Source of the DNA: Carcharhinus longimanus | Taxonomy: Eukaryota | Length of the DNA: 64,000 nt | NCBI GenBank assembly: GCA_030264375.1 | Contig: JASCQW010000177.1 | Coordinates: forward strand, 15,285,243-15,349,242 | Reading direction: 5' to 3' | In this document: positions 18,621 to 63,341 of the stretch, in pieces | Numbering within the stretch: the first letter of the stretch is position 1 | Layout of the letters: every line of letters begins with the position of its first letter | Notes under the pieces: model-generated | What the model was told of the DNA's origin: nothing | Seen by the model: only the letters and a program-made list of their open reading frames with translations | The model's database searches: none | Position numbers and translations under genes: made by a program

Positions 18621-21600
18621 ATTCAGGATTTAAAAAAAAATGTTCAACAAAGATTAACAGAAGTTCCGGTCTGTTGCCATGGTTTTGACGCCATAGTCTT
18701 AACACAACAGTCTTTCAATTCTCATATGGAGGAAGGGGGATAACTATTTGGTCACAGTGTTTCCCAGTGATCAAAGGTTATGGGGAGAAAGGAAGATCAG
18801 GTATTCAGTTGGATGATCAACCATGATTGTGATGAATGGCAGAGCAGGCTCGAAGGGCCAAATGGCCTCCTCTTGCTCCTATCTTCTATGTTCACGGGTT
18901 GGAAAGAGTCATTCCAAACATCCCAATCTCACACTCTTCCTGGTAGATTTGGCAGTGGTCCATTAGCAGGTCACCCATTCACTGGTTCAGGATTTTTGAT
19001 AGTCAAAGTTAAAATGTGACAAAATCTGACACCCGCAAAGCCTTCATGTGGTCTTGGATTTTACTATTCATCTTTAGATTGAGAGGCTCCACACTTTAAC
19101 TAAAACTAGATTTTCACAAGAGATTTTCTTCTAAAGCATCTTAGCACAATTTCACATCCTGCTTTACGATTCAATGTTGAATGACCCTCCTGAGTAAATG
19201 AATGTTATCTGAACCAAAAGCATTTATTAAAGAAAACAAAAAGAAATCATGCAGATAATTAGCATCCTTTCGATGATTTGAAGGGAAGATGCAGAAATGA
19301 AATCCGGGGTAAACTTTTCTCCAGCATTTTGGAACACGTTTAGATACAGGATCCCATTTTATTGACCTGTGTAGGTTGGGAAAAGCAGAGAAAATCTACA
19401 AACTTTTCCATTCTTGTCAATGTGGCAGAACACGACTTGCCGTCAAAGGGGCCCTCTCCTCCAAAGTCCCCTCAGAAATCTGCAAATGGAACCTGGTGAT
19501 GGCATCGACAGCCTGTACAAACACATCTCCAACAGAGGGACAACTTAGATCAATAATTCACATTGGCTTATTCTTTTCTTGAACAGTCCACTCCAAGAAC
19601 AATACAGCTTCAGTTGAAGAAAATTGTTTGGCAAACTCAAGCAATTTCACCCCTTTACAAACCATTTTCTCTTTTCGTTTTCAGGCTAGAATTTGCAAGA
19701 TTGGCTCAGAATGAACTAACCATAGTACAAGACCATTCCAGCCTTTCACCACTTTGGAACAGGAGATCTCTTTCAATAGGATTTGTTAATACGAGTAATA
19801 CTGACTTGAAGCAATATTTGTTAAACTGGTCCACCCTTGTGCCACCTACTAATTTCTCTCAAAGGCACTGACTCATGCTTGGGGTCCCAGCAGGCCAATA
19901 GTATATTATTATACCTTTCTTCACTGAGAGCGCTCAGGAAGTGGACCAGCAGGTTAAATGTCCATGTAAGCATTTCAGCAATCCTTGATCCTAGTCTTGC
20001 TGGAATTCTACCACTCCAGCTGCAATAGAATCAGGCGGGCGAGGGGCGGACAGTGGAAATGCCCGTTTACCTCTGGTGGGATTTTCCGTTCTCGGGTTGA
20101 GCAAGGCCGTAAAATCCCACCCAGTGTGCTCTAGGAATGGAATTGGGAGGATGGAGTATGGCAGTGGGGTAATTGTAACCTAGGAATGCTGGAGTTAATG
20201 GCAATCCATCAAATTTGCCATTTATGCTTACTTAGCTAAGACCATATATGGGTGCCTCTTGCTATGCATGGCTCAATAGCATATCAGCTAGTGCATTTAA
20301 TTTCTGAGCCATTACAAAGTCACATTTTATGAAAACTATTTTATTTTCAAAACTCAAATATACTATACAACACAATGGAGAATAGTTAACCAACGGGTAT
20401 ACCCCATCCTCATGGGACATAAGTTACAATCCTCTTCCTTCCTGTAGGAATTCTGATGGCTGCAAATATTTTAAGCATTATTCTATTCACTCACCCAATT
20501 ATTAGAAAAACCATTGCAACACGTGTTTTGTATTTTGTTCCTGCCTAGTGAGAATGTTTAGTGCCAATTTTAATCTATTTACACTGCATGGTTCTCAGTT
20601 TCTATAAAAATAAGAAACAGTGAGTTCTAAACCCTGACTTGGTTTGCCTTCAACTTTGAAAAACTCAGGCAGAACCCACCTGCTACCTAAATAATATCAA
20701 ATGGTTCAAAACAGGTTCAGGAAGGAATGGCAAAGATCAATGTTTTGAAATTAAATTTATTAAAGCAATTGATTAGTAGGCTTTTTTTTTTACGTTGTTA
20801 TGACTGAATTCTTTCTGGCATAGAATTTAACTAGTAATGTACAATAATTGCACATCTTGCCATGGAAACCATGCCTTATAGCACAGGACAATCCCATTTT
20901 GTGATCCTGTTCCGTATTGTTAGTTGATATAAGCTGCCTGGGAGACTAATAGGATCACCACAATTGGCCTCAGAGAGCAATGCTGTCCATAAATTAGAGG
21001 AAACACAGTTTTATAAAGATGGTATCATATTATTCTGCTATTAAGATGGAGTTGTGTGTCCCCTGTGTGTTTTTCAAACTTGAAGGCAAACCAAGTCAGG
21101 GTTTAGAACCCACTGTTTCTTATTTTTATAGAAACTAAGAGCTATGCAGTGTAAATAGATTAAAATTGGTACTAATTGCTATATGTAGACATCTTGAGAA
21201 TTCATCTGGAGGTTGATTGCTCTTAGACAAGATCATCAGGTCAATTAGAGGTCAACTGGCTTTCTTCTCATTCTGATACATGCAAAAATTATTTTCTGTT
21301 GGTTAGTTGCCAAGTTTCTCTGCACAGAAATAAAATGTGAACTCTTGCACAAAGTTGATTTAATGGGAAACTTACCTTCATCAACAAACTTACATAAAGA
21401 CAGAAAATACTAGAAAGGTAGAGGAGACCTGCCAGCCACTTATGGGAAAAGACAAATTAGGTCTTTAGCCAGAACTGGGACCTAGTTTTTAAATATTTTC
21501 TGCTTCTTTTCAACAGAACTACATAAACTTACATCATTAAGCTTTTACACGTGACAACAGGGTGGCAAAAATGATGCTCACAGCTCAAAATTGTTCCTCC

Positions 21601-21742
21601 AATAGATAAATCAGCTATTTGTAAAGTACTTCTACAGCTTGCCTTGAGATAAAGTGAAACTCTATTGGTCACACTGGCGACTTTCCTTCTGTTTAAAGCA
21701 ACAATAACATCCCAAGCCCACTAATATACGGTCAAATATATA

Positions 21743-21869
21743 GGGTGGGATTCTTTGGCCGCGCTTGTCCCAAAACCGGAGAATCCTGTCCGAGGTCAAT
21801 GGACCTTTACATGATCCACCCCCCGCCCGCTATGATTCCTGTGGCAGGTGGGACAGGAGAATTCCTCCC
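21743..21869. mobile_element. ~125-bp MITE-like element with GGG(T/C)GGGATT...AATT/CCC termini
   Basis: Related copies at ~20000-20122, ~58320-58445 and ~61195-61312; looser relatives at ~4300-4425, ~42565-42760 and ~55000-55110. Superfamily not determined. Confidence 0.65.
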
Positions 21870-21996
21870 ACAATTTTCTGTTGGGGTCACCAGACATGTC
21901 TGCACCTGCTGTGGTATAGAACAACATTGTTAAATACCTTAAACTCAATTTAATGCTTAATCTAAGTGGAAATAAGTCCTGGCTCTTCCTCCATTG

Positions 21997-22522
21997 ATGT
22001 GGAGATGCTGGTGTTGGACTGGGGCAAAACAGAAAGAAATCCCACAACACCAGCTTAAAGTCCAAACAGGTTTATTTGTAGCAAAAGCTGCAAGCTTTCA
22101 GGACAGGCTGTCCCTTCATCAGGTGGTTGGGAGTTCTGATCATAAACAGGACACAAACTTAATTTACATGCATAATGATTGTAATTGAGTCTTTACAGCT
22201 AATCAATTCTTAAAGGTACAGACAATGTGAGTGGAGAGAGCTTTAAGCACAGGTTAAAGAGATGTGTACTGTTTCCAGGCAGGAAAGTTAGTGAGATTTT
22301 GCAAGTCCAGGTTAATTGTGGGGGTTACACATAGTGTGACATGCACCCAAGATCCTGGTTGAGGCCGTTCTCACGTGTGTGGAACTCGGCCACCACTCCC
22401 TGTCCAGCGACTCCACGCCACCGCGCGTCGCGAAGGCCACCCTGGAGAACGCCTACCCGAAGACCAGAGGCCAAATGTTCATGACTGCCGAAGCGCCCCC
22501 CCCCAACAGGAAGAGAACAGGA
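21997..22522 (-). mobile_element. Penelope-like retroelement 3' end (GIY-YIG C-terminus plus pLTR)
   Basis: ORF 22325-22540 (SLPVG..F..H.H....LRVGVLQGG...F.T...GLNQDLG.MSHY*) resembles the PLE endonuclease C-terminus. The pLTR has aataaacctgtttggactttaa and a hammerhead-like core. Confidence 0.8.
22086..22128 (-). ncRNA. Minimal type I hammerhead ribozyme motif, partly decayed
   Basis: cac-CTGATGA-a-gggacagcctgtcct-GAAA-gcTT-gcag. Core intact, stem II GGACA/TGTCC, palindromic AAGCTT stem III, stem I mismatched. Confidence 0.6.
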
Positions 22523-23125
22523 AGAGGATAGAGCCAACATTTTGAGTCAGAGTTGACAAAGGGTCGCCTAGACTCAAAACCTTGGCTCTATTCTCCCTCC
22601 ACAGATGGTATCAGCCCTCTTGAGATTTTTCAGCATTTTCTGTTATTGAACCTGCCACCTTTACCCGGTATGGCCTCCTTGTGACTCCAAACCCACATTA
22701 ACACGATTAACCCTTAAATGGTCGACTCAGTTCAACAGCGATTAGGATGAGTAACAAACGCTGGGCTTGCCAGCAGCACCCATATCCCATGAGAGAATAG
22801 TACACAGTGATGGCTAAATGATTGCTTTTGAGTATGACTGATGTGAAATGAAGGCAAACGAACGGTGTTGAGCAAAAATGATGTCAAAATTCTCTGGTAG
22901 GGACACGTCAACCATCATCAATGAACTGATTATCTAGTTACTATCTCATTGCTTGTGGGATCTTGCTGTGTACAAATGGCTGCTGCATTTCTTGCATCAT
23001 ATCAGTGACTTAGACTGGCTGTTTACGGCAGCAAGATCAGTTGGTTAGATGACCGGTTTGGATGCAGAGCAACACAAACAGCGTGGGTTCAATTCCTGTA
23101 TCGGGTGAACAGAGTTAAGCATTTT

Positions 23126-23471
23126 AACCCACTAATCCCCCTAACTTCTATATATCTTGGAACACTAAGCGGTAATTGAGCAAAATCCAAGAGCAACACC
23201 AACTTGGAACATTCCAGCCTAAGTCACTGATATAATGCAAGAAATGCAGCAGCTATTTGTACACAGCAAGAGTCCACAAGCAATGTGATAATAACTAGAT
23301 AATCAGTCAACTCAACATCTTTGGAGTATGGGAGGAAACTGGAGCAGCTGGAGGAAACCCACGCAGACATGGGGAGAACATGCAAACTCCACGCAGTCAC
23401 CCAAGGCCAGAATTGAACCTGGGTCCCAGCCGCTGTGAGGCAGCAGTGTTAACCACTGTGCCGCCGTGCTG
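23126..23471 (-). mobile_element. HE1-type V-SINE interrupted by a locally templated inverted insert
   Basis: SINE body on both sides of ~23190-23310. Confidence 0.8.
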
Positions 23472-24004: not shown

Positions 24005-24215
24005 TACCTTTAAGAATTGATTAGCTGTAAAGACTCACATTCCAATCATTATGCATGTAAATTGAGTTTGTGTCTTTGTGCCCTGTTTATGATCAGAACT
24101 CCCAGCTGCCTGATAAAGGGACAGCCTGTCCCAAAAGCTTGCAGCTTTTGCTACAAATAAACCTGTTTGGACTTTAAGCTGGTGTTGTGGGATTTTTTTT
24201 CTGTTTTTCCCCCAT
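24005..24215 (+). mobile_element. Penelope pLTR copy, inverted relative to 22020-22218
   Basis: Reverse-complement match over ~200 bp with scattered differences. Confidence 0.8.
24104..24146 (+). ncRNA. Hammerhead ribozyme relic (core mutated)
   Basis: agctgc-CTGATAA-a-gggacagcctgtccc-AAAA-gcTT-gcagct. Perfect 6-bp stem I and stem II, but two G-to-A core changes. Confidence 0.5.
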
Positions 24216-25076
24216 TCACAACTGTATAAAGACCTTCAAATTAATTAATTGAAGATTGGTATGTACACTTATGCCACCCATTTGGTTTGGGGCTGGATAA
24301 TTCAGAGGTTTGAAAAAATGGAAGAGTTTTCTTTTTAATTAAAAGTCCAAGTCCACTCCACATACCAGGATGGAAGGTTTTAATTACAAGGATTGGCTTT
24401 AAAATTATCCCACTTGACAAAAGAGGAGTACTTTTACAAGTCTGCTGCCACCATTTTGGTTTAATGGTCAAAAAATTGTGGGCAACAAGTATTTGATTTT
24501 GTGATAAATGGTGGTCTGAATAAGCAGATTAGACTTGTAAAATTTCCTCTTTACCTGGATCAAGTGGCAGGGTAAAAGTAAACTACTGCAGATTTGGTTG
24601 AATTTTTACCACCTCAACGTTAATACTTCAGGCTCCAGATTGTTAGATTTGTGGCTTCCAATCAAAGTCAGGTGCTTTTTCCAGTAAAATTACAAATGGA
24701 ATTACTTCACCCTTGGAGGAAGGTGATATTCCCTTTATTTTGATATTCCCATTTGGCAAAGTGCCTCTTCATCAGCATATTTCCTTTTGTCTTGCTGCAT
24801 TATCATCTTTCCCACGTAACGCTGTCACTATCACCTGGCAAACGAGATCTATCCAAGCTTACAAGAAAAGGAACTTACATATCTGCCAGAAATTAAAAAA
24901 AAACTAAGCTGTGAAATTGCTTACAAAGTCAACACAATTATCAACAACCTAGTATTTCCTTCATGAAAATAAAACAATGGCCAGATTGGTAAATGTACTG
25001 CTTGATGTACATTCACAGGCCCAAGAGATCCTAATCCCAGGTCTGCATTGAGTTTGAGGAGTTAGCTGGAGTAGTG

Positions 25077-39004: not shown

Positions 39005-39238
<234 letters not shown>

Positions 39239-49200: not shown

Positions 49201-50823
49201 CAGCCTGAATACCTGAAGAGAAATTGATTTGCCCTCTCTGAAACACACAACAATCATGCAACCCACAGGAAGGGGAGTGTGCTTGTTGTAAAACAACTTT
49301 TCTATATTGAACTCTTTTTAAAATTTTATTCACGTCAATCAATGAACTTTTCTTTTCTGATTCAGGTTACACCAAGCTAAGGAAGGCTGGATTTAAACTC
49401 GGCTTTGCATTCAAAATATAAAAGCAATAATGGTAGAGTGGTGACACTTTGATGATGCATTTTCTGTGCAACATTCAGATCTCTCAGCTTCTCTGGAATC
49501 TCACTTCTCCTAACTCTTCAGGGGAAGGATTGTCCTGGGCCACAATGTGTGGAAACTTTAACTGCATGTGAGGCTTCTTATCTGTAGTGAAACTGTGAAC
49601 ACATTCTAAATGAAGACTTACTGAAGGGGAAGCTTGCTGTGACAGATAGGAAAATTCTGTCTTTGGTTGTGAAGGTAACAAAACAAGACAATTTGTTTCA
49701 GGGCATTTTGATTTGGGATCCGAATACTAGTTTAAAAGAATCATGTAACATGATCCTTAAAGGTTCAGGTAGCGAGTAAATGTATGGATTACTGCAGATA
49801 CTGTGTCATAAAGTTCAGCAAGGTCTCAGGTTCCATCCCTAATATGTGTTGAATCAGCTGATCTCTGATGGGAAAAAGTGAGTAAATTCACTATCTCCAA
49901 CATAGGGAAAAGCCAAAGTTGTCATACTAGTGCTGGACAATGCATGTGTGTGGATGTCAATTGAAGGCATGGCCACTAGGCTGTGGAGACCCTCACCACT
50001 CCGTGAGTCAAATAGCTTGCCAACACTTACTACCTGGTTTATCCGCAAAGAGTGGGCACCCAGGTGGAGTGTTAAGACTGGAATCTGTATTGTGGTGGTT
50101 AAGTGTGCCTCAAACGTGATGGGAGAAAATTGGAGGGAACAAAGGACTTACATTCACTGTAATTAATTGCTGTTCAATTTAGGATAAGTAGATCTTGGAT
50201 AAAACTAACTTGAGTGGCTGTAGAACAGATTGGTTTGTTGGGGGTAGAGGGGGTATTTTCCCCTCCCTTGTTCTTATATGAAAATACATCTTCCACCAAA
50301 TATTCCAAAAGGAAGATTGACACATTTGCAGATTGCGTGTTAGTTCTTCTGGTGCAGTGAACTTCTGAGACTGATCTAAAGGGACTACTAAAAATATAAA
50401 AACTGGAGAAAGGACCCAAGACAGTTTGGCCCTGTGAGATGTAGTGAGTTTTTTTCTCCAGAACACACTGATAACAAGATCTGCAAATGCTAAAGGCAAA
50501 GGAAAAGCCCAATATCACACCCAAAAGCAAGCTGTTTGCTCAATTTTTAAAAACCAATTGTTAGATCAAATACTGCAGGTAGGAGGAAAATAGTGGTTTC
50601 AAATAAGAGAAAGTAATTGAGTTTGGGCAATAAATTAAATCTTGCTAAAAAAATTGAGGTATGATTTTTGGATAAGTATTCCATCAACTAATAGGTAAAT
50701 CACATTTATTGTCAACCCTCTCAGACTCCTCCCACTTCTTTTGGACTGCACGATCCCTAATCCTAACAGTTCAAAGGTCACAGATTTTCTCCGACACACT
50801 GAACACTAAGGACACATTTCTAC

Positions 50824-50920
50824 CTTATAAGCAACTCGCGCAGGGCATTTCTTCCCCAGGCCTAAGGGCGGAGACATGTGTCTCAACATCTCATACATAT
50901 CAGTGTAACTGATGCGGCCA
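50824..50920 (-). CDS. CACNA1A: CACNA1A mutually exclusive exon 37b (EFb, 97 nt): [32 protein letters not shown]
   Basis: Acceptor tttctgctacaaag|T behind a long pyrimidine tract, donor AAG|gtagaa. Confidence 0.95.
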
Positions 50921-51381
50921 CTTTGTAGCAGAAATGAGGCAAAAAGGAGATGTATCCAAGACGAACGAAAAGAAAAATGGAAGGAAACAAACAAAAACAA
51001 AAAAATTACAAGGTTATTCTTAATGGGTCTGTCAATTGCAGAAATTCACCCAATATCTATGCAATGTCAAAATATTGCATAGGAATACAGAGAGCATTTT
51101 CTTTTAGTCTTGATGGAAAAAGTCCTCTGCCTGTTGTGAGGAGATGCCAGTCTTTGTCAATGCAGTTTCTGTCCCTACAGTAATGAACACTACTATACCC
51201 AAGATGCCGAGTGATTTGGTTACGACAAGCAGCAATGGCTGAGGTTGAGGTTGGTCAGTGCATTTCCATGCTATTTTCTCTAGGTGACTGCATTTTCCTG
51301 CACATTCTACTTCAAGAAATGCAAAAAAAGAGAAAGCACACTCATTCATTGATGCTTAGGTTGGTAGGTTAGTGGAAGTCA

Positions 51382-61917: not shown

Positions 61918-62557
61918 TTATGTAAAAATTGAAGAAGCATGAACTGGGGTGCTGCAGTAATCAACTACATATTATTAATTGTTTAATAGTTAACTGAAAG
62001 AGTGGAGACCCATATTCTGCGACACAAAAGTAAGATGCAGGATTCATAATGTAGCAACTTGTCAATCCTAGCAGTGACACCAGTTCCATGCTGATATCAT
62101 TATAAGTTAAAGCAGCAGTGAATGCGAATGAAGAACCACTCAGTCCTGCTTCTTACTTAGATCATCTACAATCTACTCTAACATCGATGCTACACACATT
62201 AAACCTATTGAGGGAACGGGAATATTCTCTAATCCTCAGTGATATCAAACAACTCCAGAATATACATCCAACCCCATTTTACAGAATCACAGAATGGTTA
62301 CAACACAAAGGCAATGATTTTTGAACTGATAGAGACGTTAATTATAAAAAGCTAATTTGACTGACAACAGTGGAGCAATAATAAACTAAAAAAGCTGAAA
62401 ATACATAACCAGTAATCAGGATGTTTCATCTCATGCTTTTGATGTGAAGGGTGCATATTCAGAACAGATAGAGACATACTTTGTGTATGTCCAACATTTT
62501 GTTTTCAGGTTATTAAATCATGAGATTGACAAGAAACAGGATGCATTCGATACTTAC

Positions 62558-62708
62558 CAGGAAGGAACAGAGGAAAATGAAGGAGACAAAATAGAAATAG
62601 GCAAACTCATTGCCACATTCGTTTCCTGCGATGCCAGATTTTGGATCACATGGTTTGCCACCCAAGCATGATAACATGATACTATGCCATGCCTCTCCTG
62701 TTGCACTC
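62558..62708 (-). CDS. CACNA1A: CACNA1A exon 35 equivalent (151 nt), domain IV pore and S6: [50 protein letters not shown]
   Basis: Acceptor tatttcag|G, donor CTG|gtaagt. The selectivity-filter Glu in TGEAW is intact. Confidence 0.97.
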
Positions 62709-63341
62709 CTGAAATACACATACAATCTTGTTACAGTAACGGCAGTCAAGGAAGACAGATGAAAACTAATAGGAAATTCACACACTTCCTTTAATAATTC
62801 ACCTGAAAGACATCAATTTGATAAAAGCCCCAGTATAGGTGATTCCCAATTCTGGGTAAAATATGAGGCTGCGTCCAGACTCATTGGGTCAGAGATACCT
62901 CCTCAAATTGTGCACTGGTTTTGGATAACGTACTTAGTAACAGAAAAAAATCATCCTGTCTGAGTCCTTCTCTGTGATGGCTCAGTGGGCTTGCTGTCAT
63001 ACTGAGCTCTACAAATCAGAAAATATCAGTTTCAATCTCTGGCCTAGCCAGGGAAGAATCAAGGGGCATGGGAAAGAGTGGTGCCTTCATTCGCTAGGGA
63101 AACAAGGAACTGGATTTGCCAATATTCATGCTATTAATCATTACACAGTGATCGTTGCTGAAAAGTGCATGCGTCTCCATGGCAGGTGAGAATTGGAGTC
63201 AGCTGTGGTACCTTCTATACTTCGATAGCTTGCTGACAAACATTACTTAGGCTGCAGGGGAAGAAGTGCCTGGTATCTATGAAACCTTATTAAGAGATAT
63301 TAAAAGAAATTAAGAGGCAAATAAAGTTGATGGTTTTTTAC

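Follow-up and report, generated by a model that had tools for sequence, protein, structure and literature searches.

Clustered A-to-G changes in a Penelope-like element copy point to ADAR editing of its RNA before reverse transcription

The window, a stretch of 64,000 nucleotides, contains a truncated copy of a Penelope-like element (PLE) in which a tract of A-to-G changes lies beside an unaffected pLTR. The tract is real and old, and editing is recurrent across the family: a scan of PLE copies for similar clusters, made by targeted searches, found 19 edited loci. The original prediction, that the RNA was hyper-edited by ADAR before reverse transcription, is supported by a one-strand spectrum and, at sister loci, by editing confined to stems and by hairpins edited in both arms. 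Judging from these sequence patterns, we consider it highly probable (about 0.88) that the window copy derives from a Penelope RNA duplex hyper-edited by ADAR, in which reverse transcriptase (RT) copied inosine as G into the germline. A-to-I editing is usually taken to be transient and non-heritable; here it has most likely been fixed in the germline repeatedly, via a retrotransposon.

Table 1. Features in and around the Penelope copy (window positions; X18 is a sequencing run from another organism)
Feature	Position	Strand	Basis or detail
5′-truncated Penelope-like element copy (endonuclease tail and pLTR)	21978..22520	-	homology to family copies
C-terminal frame remnant of GIY-YIG endonuclease, non-functional fragment	22325..22520	-	translation, alignment
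pLTR, unedited	21978..22324	-	A>G and T>C counts
A>G tract, apparently hyper-edited (18/28 A's; T>C nil)	22387..22497	-	comparison with paralog majority
G9 run: G4, two edited A's and 3 slippage G	22496..22504	-	run 3 shorter in X18 contig
Two CA>TG doublets, 22420/19 and 22415/14	22414..22420	-	X18 keeps CG at 22415/14
Palindromic piece of second abundant repeat at 5′ junction	22524..22649	.	hairpin arms 22524-22548, 22571-22595
Divergent pLTR arm, same subfamily, beyond N gap	24005..24222	+	~94% complementary to 22033-22218
Calcium-channel alpha subunit exons (Ion_trans, GPHH, IQ, C-terminal tail)	62516-62812, 50809-51045, 39005-39238, ~36488, ~6470	-	

Family homology has a sharp 5′ limit at 22520 and a 3′ limit at about 21978-21993, and no target-site duplication was identified for the copy. 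In the family majority, RT followed by a C-terminal GIY-YIG domain forms a single reading frame. Of five sister frames scanned, four gave matches: RVT_1 at E 6e-6 and 6e-5 (fragments, below the cut-off) and GIY-YIG at E 1e-5 (above the cut-off). The window fragment by itself matched no family in a Pfam search; its peptide is identical at 41 of 62 positions to the sister-copy frame in which GIY-YIG is found (E 1e-23). From the RT and GIY-YIG domains of the sister copies and this alignment, we concluded that the copy represents the 3′ end of a Penelope-like element of the type that encodes an endonuclease. Near 22091-22123 the pLTR carries a motif, spotted by eye, that we take to be a hammerhead-like core; Rfam gave no hammerhead match in the pLTR.

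Pfam also matched Ion_trans, GPHH and Ca_chan_IQ in three of 127 frames, at 62.5, 50.8 and 39.0 kb (three more weak matches, below the cut-off, were disregarded). Together with a frame at 6.5 kb that we take, by its motif, to be a C-terminal exon-like frame of the calcium channel, these matches place the Penelope copy inside an intron of a voltage-gated calcium-channel gene; gene and element both run on the minus strand.

As predicted, minus-strand positions 22381-22500 hold 13 A and 12 CpGs in 120 nt, and this is the only part of the window with at least 10 CpG per 120 nt. Translation likewise reproduced the quoted residues of the G/R/A/V-rich peptide. As the reference for counting substitutions we took the majority base of each column across 29 paralogs of the same genome; because these are the nearest matches, the test is conservative. 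Read from 22497 to 22387, the tract shows 18 A>G and no T>C, alongside 3 G>A, 4 C>T, 1 C>G and 3 G added to a G run, a one-directional A>G spectrum in place of a balanced one. With a background of 3% (measured 2.7-3.6%), the binomial p for A>G in the tract is 4e-21. In the remaining 390 nt, downstream of the tract, 3 of 98 A's are changed to G, as against 18 of 28 within it (Fisher p 5e-12). The adjacent pLTR is unaffected, as claimed. A>G products also make up the majority of substitutions in the endonuclease frame remnant. Among the residue changes that had been attributed to A-to-G, one needs correction: against the genome majority, K>G is R>G.

The four C>T changes in the tract fall on old CpGs (two) and on CpGs created by the edits (two). 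The CA>TG doublets are edit-made CpGs that afterwards decayed, and the three surplus G in the G9 run come from later slippage. Such a tract might also be an artefact of assembly or sequencing beside a hairpin and a G run, or belong to a G-rich subfamily, which we regard as the least likely of the explanations considered. The assembly is gappy and the tract does lie behind the hairpin and the G9 run. Four public runs were compared, as contigs rather than as raw reads of the source individual, and no contig in any of them has 99% likeness over the tract; X17, whose flanks are identical to the window, has no near-identical contig there, and contig holes carry no weight. Against an artefact, a 202-nt contig of X18, which comes from another organism, spans 22381-22549 and has 9 edited bases in common with the window, these being all the cleanly readable sites (7 of the 18 edited sites are masked by paralogs in this comparison). 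Over 22381-22424, where it is the sole X18 contig, it differs once, at 22415, with CG for the window's TG, as CpG decay predicts; 10 further differences are not itemised. Its right flank is ~5% divergent and it ends 29 nt beyond the junction (bridging threshold 31 nt). A junction-spanning X1 contig has TG at 22495/94, another decay of an edit-created CpG. The nine shared edits and the decay of the new CpGs therefore mark the tract as old germline sequence and not an assembly error.

A subfamily with these G residues was ruled out by paralog scoring and by low site agreement. The G's are shared by none of the matches scored. The best match reaches 84% (40 of 3266 candidates scored); in a second set (40 of 260 scored) the ceiling is 83% across the greater part of the core, and no full-length match among those scored exceeds 84%. 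At its edited sites the window copy agrees with other edited copies at just 0.48-0.79 (7 comparisons), so it looks like a separate editing event. For the window copy, descent from one edited ancestor likewise found no support: agreement is 0.5-0.7 in most pairs of edited copies, with higher values in two pairs (antisense arms of L122 and L144, 0.84 over 50 sites; L105 and L144, 0.87 over 15 sites).

At its 5′ junction the copy meets a piece of a second abundant repeat, whose scorable part (22553-22649) has no A>G or T>C cluster. The hairpin there was tried as an RNA family and rejected, with microRNA matches at chance level only. A tandem micro-duplication occupies 22507-22530, where the X18 contig and the junction-bridging X1 contig are both 10 bases longer through an insertion they have in common. 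The Penelope copy and the second repeat meet there in similar sequence, which suggests microhomology. Two X17 contigs (22377-22411, 22400-22453) and an X5 contig (22404-22477) resemble other edited family copies.

Sister copies were collected in searches with edited copies and short patterns, which yielded 267 distinct arms. These contain 12 A>G clusters, 7 T>C clusters and 0 G>A clusters, at 13 loci including the window; a C>T cluster occurs in one of the 267 arms, inside an edited arm. Cluster scores across these arms split cleanly, with edited arms at 20.2 or above and the remainder at 9.9 or below. Two further patterns gave 16 and 5 matches; 7 and 3 of these, respectively, carried edits outside the search motif, and six of the edited ones were new loci. 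Unedited matches (8 of 16 and 1 of 5), one borderline and one non-family match were all kept in the counts. Every edited locus came from searches designed to find edited copies. In an evenly spaced 665-kb sample, none of 47 family arms scored above threshold and one was borderline (L191, score 13.6). A rough hand estimate, from the arm density in this sample and the recapture of two of five known edited arms per pattern, puts the edited fraction at ~0.1% of copies. Scorable other repeats (~160 kb) had no A>G or T>C cluster; since about one would be expected there at ~0.1% per copy, this zero is uninformative on Penelope specificity. Short borderline A>G clusters outside the 19 loci were seen at L191:3461-3897, L264:1288-1849 and L274:923-980.

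The family shows the predicted inverted arrangement, with 76 head-to-head against 2 tail-to-tail pairs of neighbouring arms among 370 arms. In the palindromes L169, L170, L103 and L172 the sense arm shows A>G and the antisense arm T>C, all A>G being on one chromosome strand. The A>G arm is the one with a complete 3′ end; in L170, L103 and L172 the T>C arm ends before the 3′ end is reached, and in L169 it meets a gap. Loops are nearly free of changes, as seen in three sister palindromes (loop versus stem 2/126 vs 88/144, 2/42 vs 59/123 and 1/9 vs 28/49). A reference-free check compared arm against arm by G-U and A-C counts in 37 pairs: five are strongly skewed towards G-U (201:19, 95:8, 71:4, 99:24 and 45:6) and the other 32 are balanced. 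L172 is predicted to fold into a single long hairpin (z -30.6). The two L108 arms occupy opposite strands of the chromosome, and each reads as A>G in the sense of the element, which shows that polarity tracks the RNA and not the chromosome. Four edits are common to both within their 49-nt overlap, and the locus could represent two cDNAs made off one edited sense RNA, in the geometry known as twin priming. Nicking and extension by a Poseidon protein have been shown for both target strands (PMC11167929).

Clusters of this kind could in principle arise by polymerase error, with Penelope RT or a translesion polymerase misinserting opposite A (or placing G opposite second-strand T) during strand displacement along a hairpin or when dNTP pools are skewed. 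Errors linked to template structure could follow stems too, and the arms with the heaviest changes show weak 5′G avoidance. However, changes at A are nearly all to G (116 A>G against 9 other changes at A in L112), at a level of 50-65% in edited arms over up to 830 nt. Displacement would leave the second arm single-stranded, as the loop is; even so, that arm carries changes and the loop is spared. The preference for 5′ U and A lies on the RNA strand in both arms, and the two cDNAs of L108 are changed at the same overlap sites, which indicates a modified template and not independent errors. We consider polymerase error improbable, slightly more so than deamination or rewriting on DNA or in place, which is itself very unlikely and would mean either that ADAR deaminated the DNA strand of an RNA:cDNA hybrid or that host pre-mRNA, once edited, was copied back into the locus.

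ADARs are active on RNA:DNA hybrids, and T>C-only arms with near-complete 3′ ends (L171, L274) have the polarity of first-strand cDNA editing; an in-place origin fits a host gene and an element on the same strand. Yet editing of first-strand cDNA predicts T>C, whereas A>G is what the window copy and the majority of edited arms show, and stem-only editing of two arms together with the opposite-strand polarity of L108 requires an RNA duplex that predates insertion. The best duplex in the host pre-mRNA, formed by the window's paired pLTR arms, is unedited (1/43 and 1/49 in the copy; 3/44 A>G and 1/52 T>C in the arm at 24.0 kb), which argues against write-back. For the window copy, deamination of DNA or in place is largely refuted. 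The 24.0-kb inverted arm was also rejected as the editing partner, both paired arms being unedited, and no edited partner arm is preserved at the window locus.

ADAR's 5′-neighbour order is U>A>C>G. Across 19 edited arms, by 5′ base on the RNA strand, editing was found at 155/184 sites after U (.84), 224/303 after A (.74), 230/504 after C (.46) and 182/381 after G (.48; G vs rest p 6e-6). The six new loci, with the search motif excluded, gave U 52/67 (.78), A 67/96 (.70), C 40/95 (.42) and G 26/69 (.38), and the unedited background is flat across 5′ neighbours at 2-4%. The pooled 5′G signature is modest, at 38-48% edited, with 5′C as low as 5′G. The window copy by itself departs from the predicted 5′G depletion, with 5/8 such sites edited (small numbers). 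The 5′C rate tops the 5′G rate only on the assumption that CpGs decayed back to CA; at 5′C sites in edited tracts, 156 CG and 63 TG were seen, and CA>TG amounts to 63 per 241 CA there vs 82 per 10585 elsewhere. Upstream G is depleted at ADAR sites (PMC5625713, PMC10636886). Hyper-editing in RNA-seq shows strong 5′G depletion (PMC5625713), and the pooled depletion here is weaker, which may stem from saturation of editing.

ADAR editing of duplex RNA would have proceeded from the head-to-head inverted pairs that the family is seen to make. Read-through of an inverted pair would give a long hairpin, in which, as spectrum, stem confinement and neighbour order suggest, ADAR would have deaminated ~50-65% of the paired A's in both arms; ADAR-family deaminase domains are present in the genome. 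Priming at the 3′ end of the sense arm may then have inserted the edited RNA whole or in part. For the window copy, reverse transcription would have ended ~25 nt past the edited tract, so that the partner arm was not carried along. The new CpGs have since decayed like ordinary methylated DNA, and the insertion is common to another organism.

Some pairs go beyond a single hairpin. The antisense arm is edited and its paired sense arm unedited at L274:1287-1771, at L171:3912-4657 (gap-interrupted) and in the 3′ half of L170 (L170:3019-3670), and the reverse holds at L256:1293-1947. Switching of RNA molecules must therefore be added, and switching between edited and unedited RNAs may be the simplest addition. 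In several sense arms, that of the window copy among them, edits lie on the 5′ side and are absent near the pLTR, a layout that either a short partner arm or an RNA switch would produce. Taking these loci together, we lean slightly towards a wider reading in which Penelopes routinely convert ADAR edits to inherited DNA, the edits serving as a fossil strand label and a duplex map. As parts of this same tentatively favoured reading, read-through of head-to-head copies would yield hairpin RNA that is transposed again in its entirety, new head-to-head inversions would arise from sense RNA primed off both target strands (L108), and single insertions would be stitched from edited and unedited RNA (L274, L256, L170). 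At L104:4314-5006 a heavily edited arm (100/152) directly adjoins a tandem piece from this family that is unedited.

The family resembles Penelope/Poseidon-type PLEs, which carry head-to-head inverted pLTRs (PMC3846280, PMC11167929), in having RT with a C-terminal GIY-YIG, a pLTR past the stop codon, head-to-head pairs and 5′ truncation; the sections of these papers covered here describe no editing record. ADAR has a major target in Penelope RNA, which undergoes heavy editing in both lizard and Xenopus tropicalis (PMC5625713, PMC10636886). The substrate class is the same here, 5′G is again disfavoured, and a 3′ A is slightly favoured (.66-.71 vs.49-.57), as in the amphibian/invertebrate group of those papers. 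Whereas those edits are RNA-versus-genome differences, ours are in the genome itself. In exogenous retroviruses, ADAR-linked A>G hypermutation has been described for RAV-1, avian leukosis virus and HTLV-2/STLV-3 (Felder 1994, Hajjar and Linial 1995, Ko 2012, as cited in PMC8586724), where RNA-strand A>G clusters are similarly kept in DNA by reverse transcription. Unlike those infectious viruses, the Penelope copies are endogenous, germline-fixed, shared between organisms and found at no fewer than 19 loci, with stems and loops that can be mapped.

APOBEC G>A scars are inherited in endogenous retroelements (PMC4866542, PMC2873906). They share with our copies a strand-biased deaminase cluster in an inherited copy and a ruined coding frame; APOBEC, however, leaves G>A on the cDNA of LTR elements, and the A>G here is tied to RNA duplexes. 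A sense-strand G>A cluster, the APOBEC hallmark, reached threshold in 0 of 267 arms, and the window tract has 3 G>A. As described in the part of PMC4866542 on which we rely, that screen retained only alignments dominated by G-to-A, so A>G-edited copies would have been dropped. We found no report of germline-fixed ADAR-edited retrotransposon copies in the literature searched, which mostly excludes subscription journals.

Edited copies provide a datable record of germline ADAR activity and a way for CpG-rich patches to arise abruptly within AT-rich introns, and editing is a possible route by which ADAR disables Penelope copies. They are also a pitfall for repeat dating and subfamily calling, since an ordinary copy appears 20-30% diverged. 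Because inosine marks both the RNA strand and its paired part, the copies report directly on how Penelopes build inverted arms. PMC3846280, in the part consulted, leaves undecided which strand templates the inverted arm; if our reading is true, the choice between sense and antisense template in Penelope replication could be counted from genome sequence alone.

Several minor observations accompany these results. Weak G>A clusters occur in other repeats at L241:6270-6302 (6/8) and L254:2729-2788 (5/6), possibly APOBEC-type or due to chance. In the intron that holds the copy, two more near-perfect inverted repeats (20558-21175, 110 nt at 94%; 22925-23307, 94 nt at 93%) are candidate ADAR substrates in the host pre-mRNA. 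Positions 21700-21818 show 0 differences in the X1, X17 and X18 contigs, although the right flank of X18 is divergent; this is possibly a conserved element or a small exon of the channel gene.
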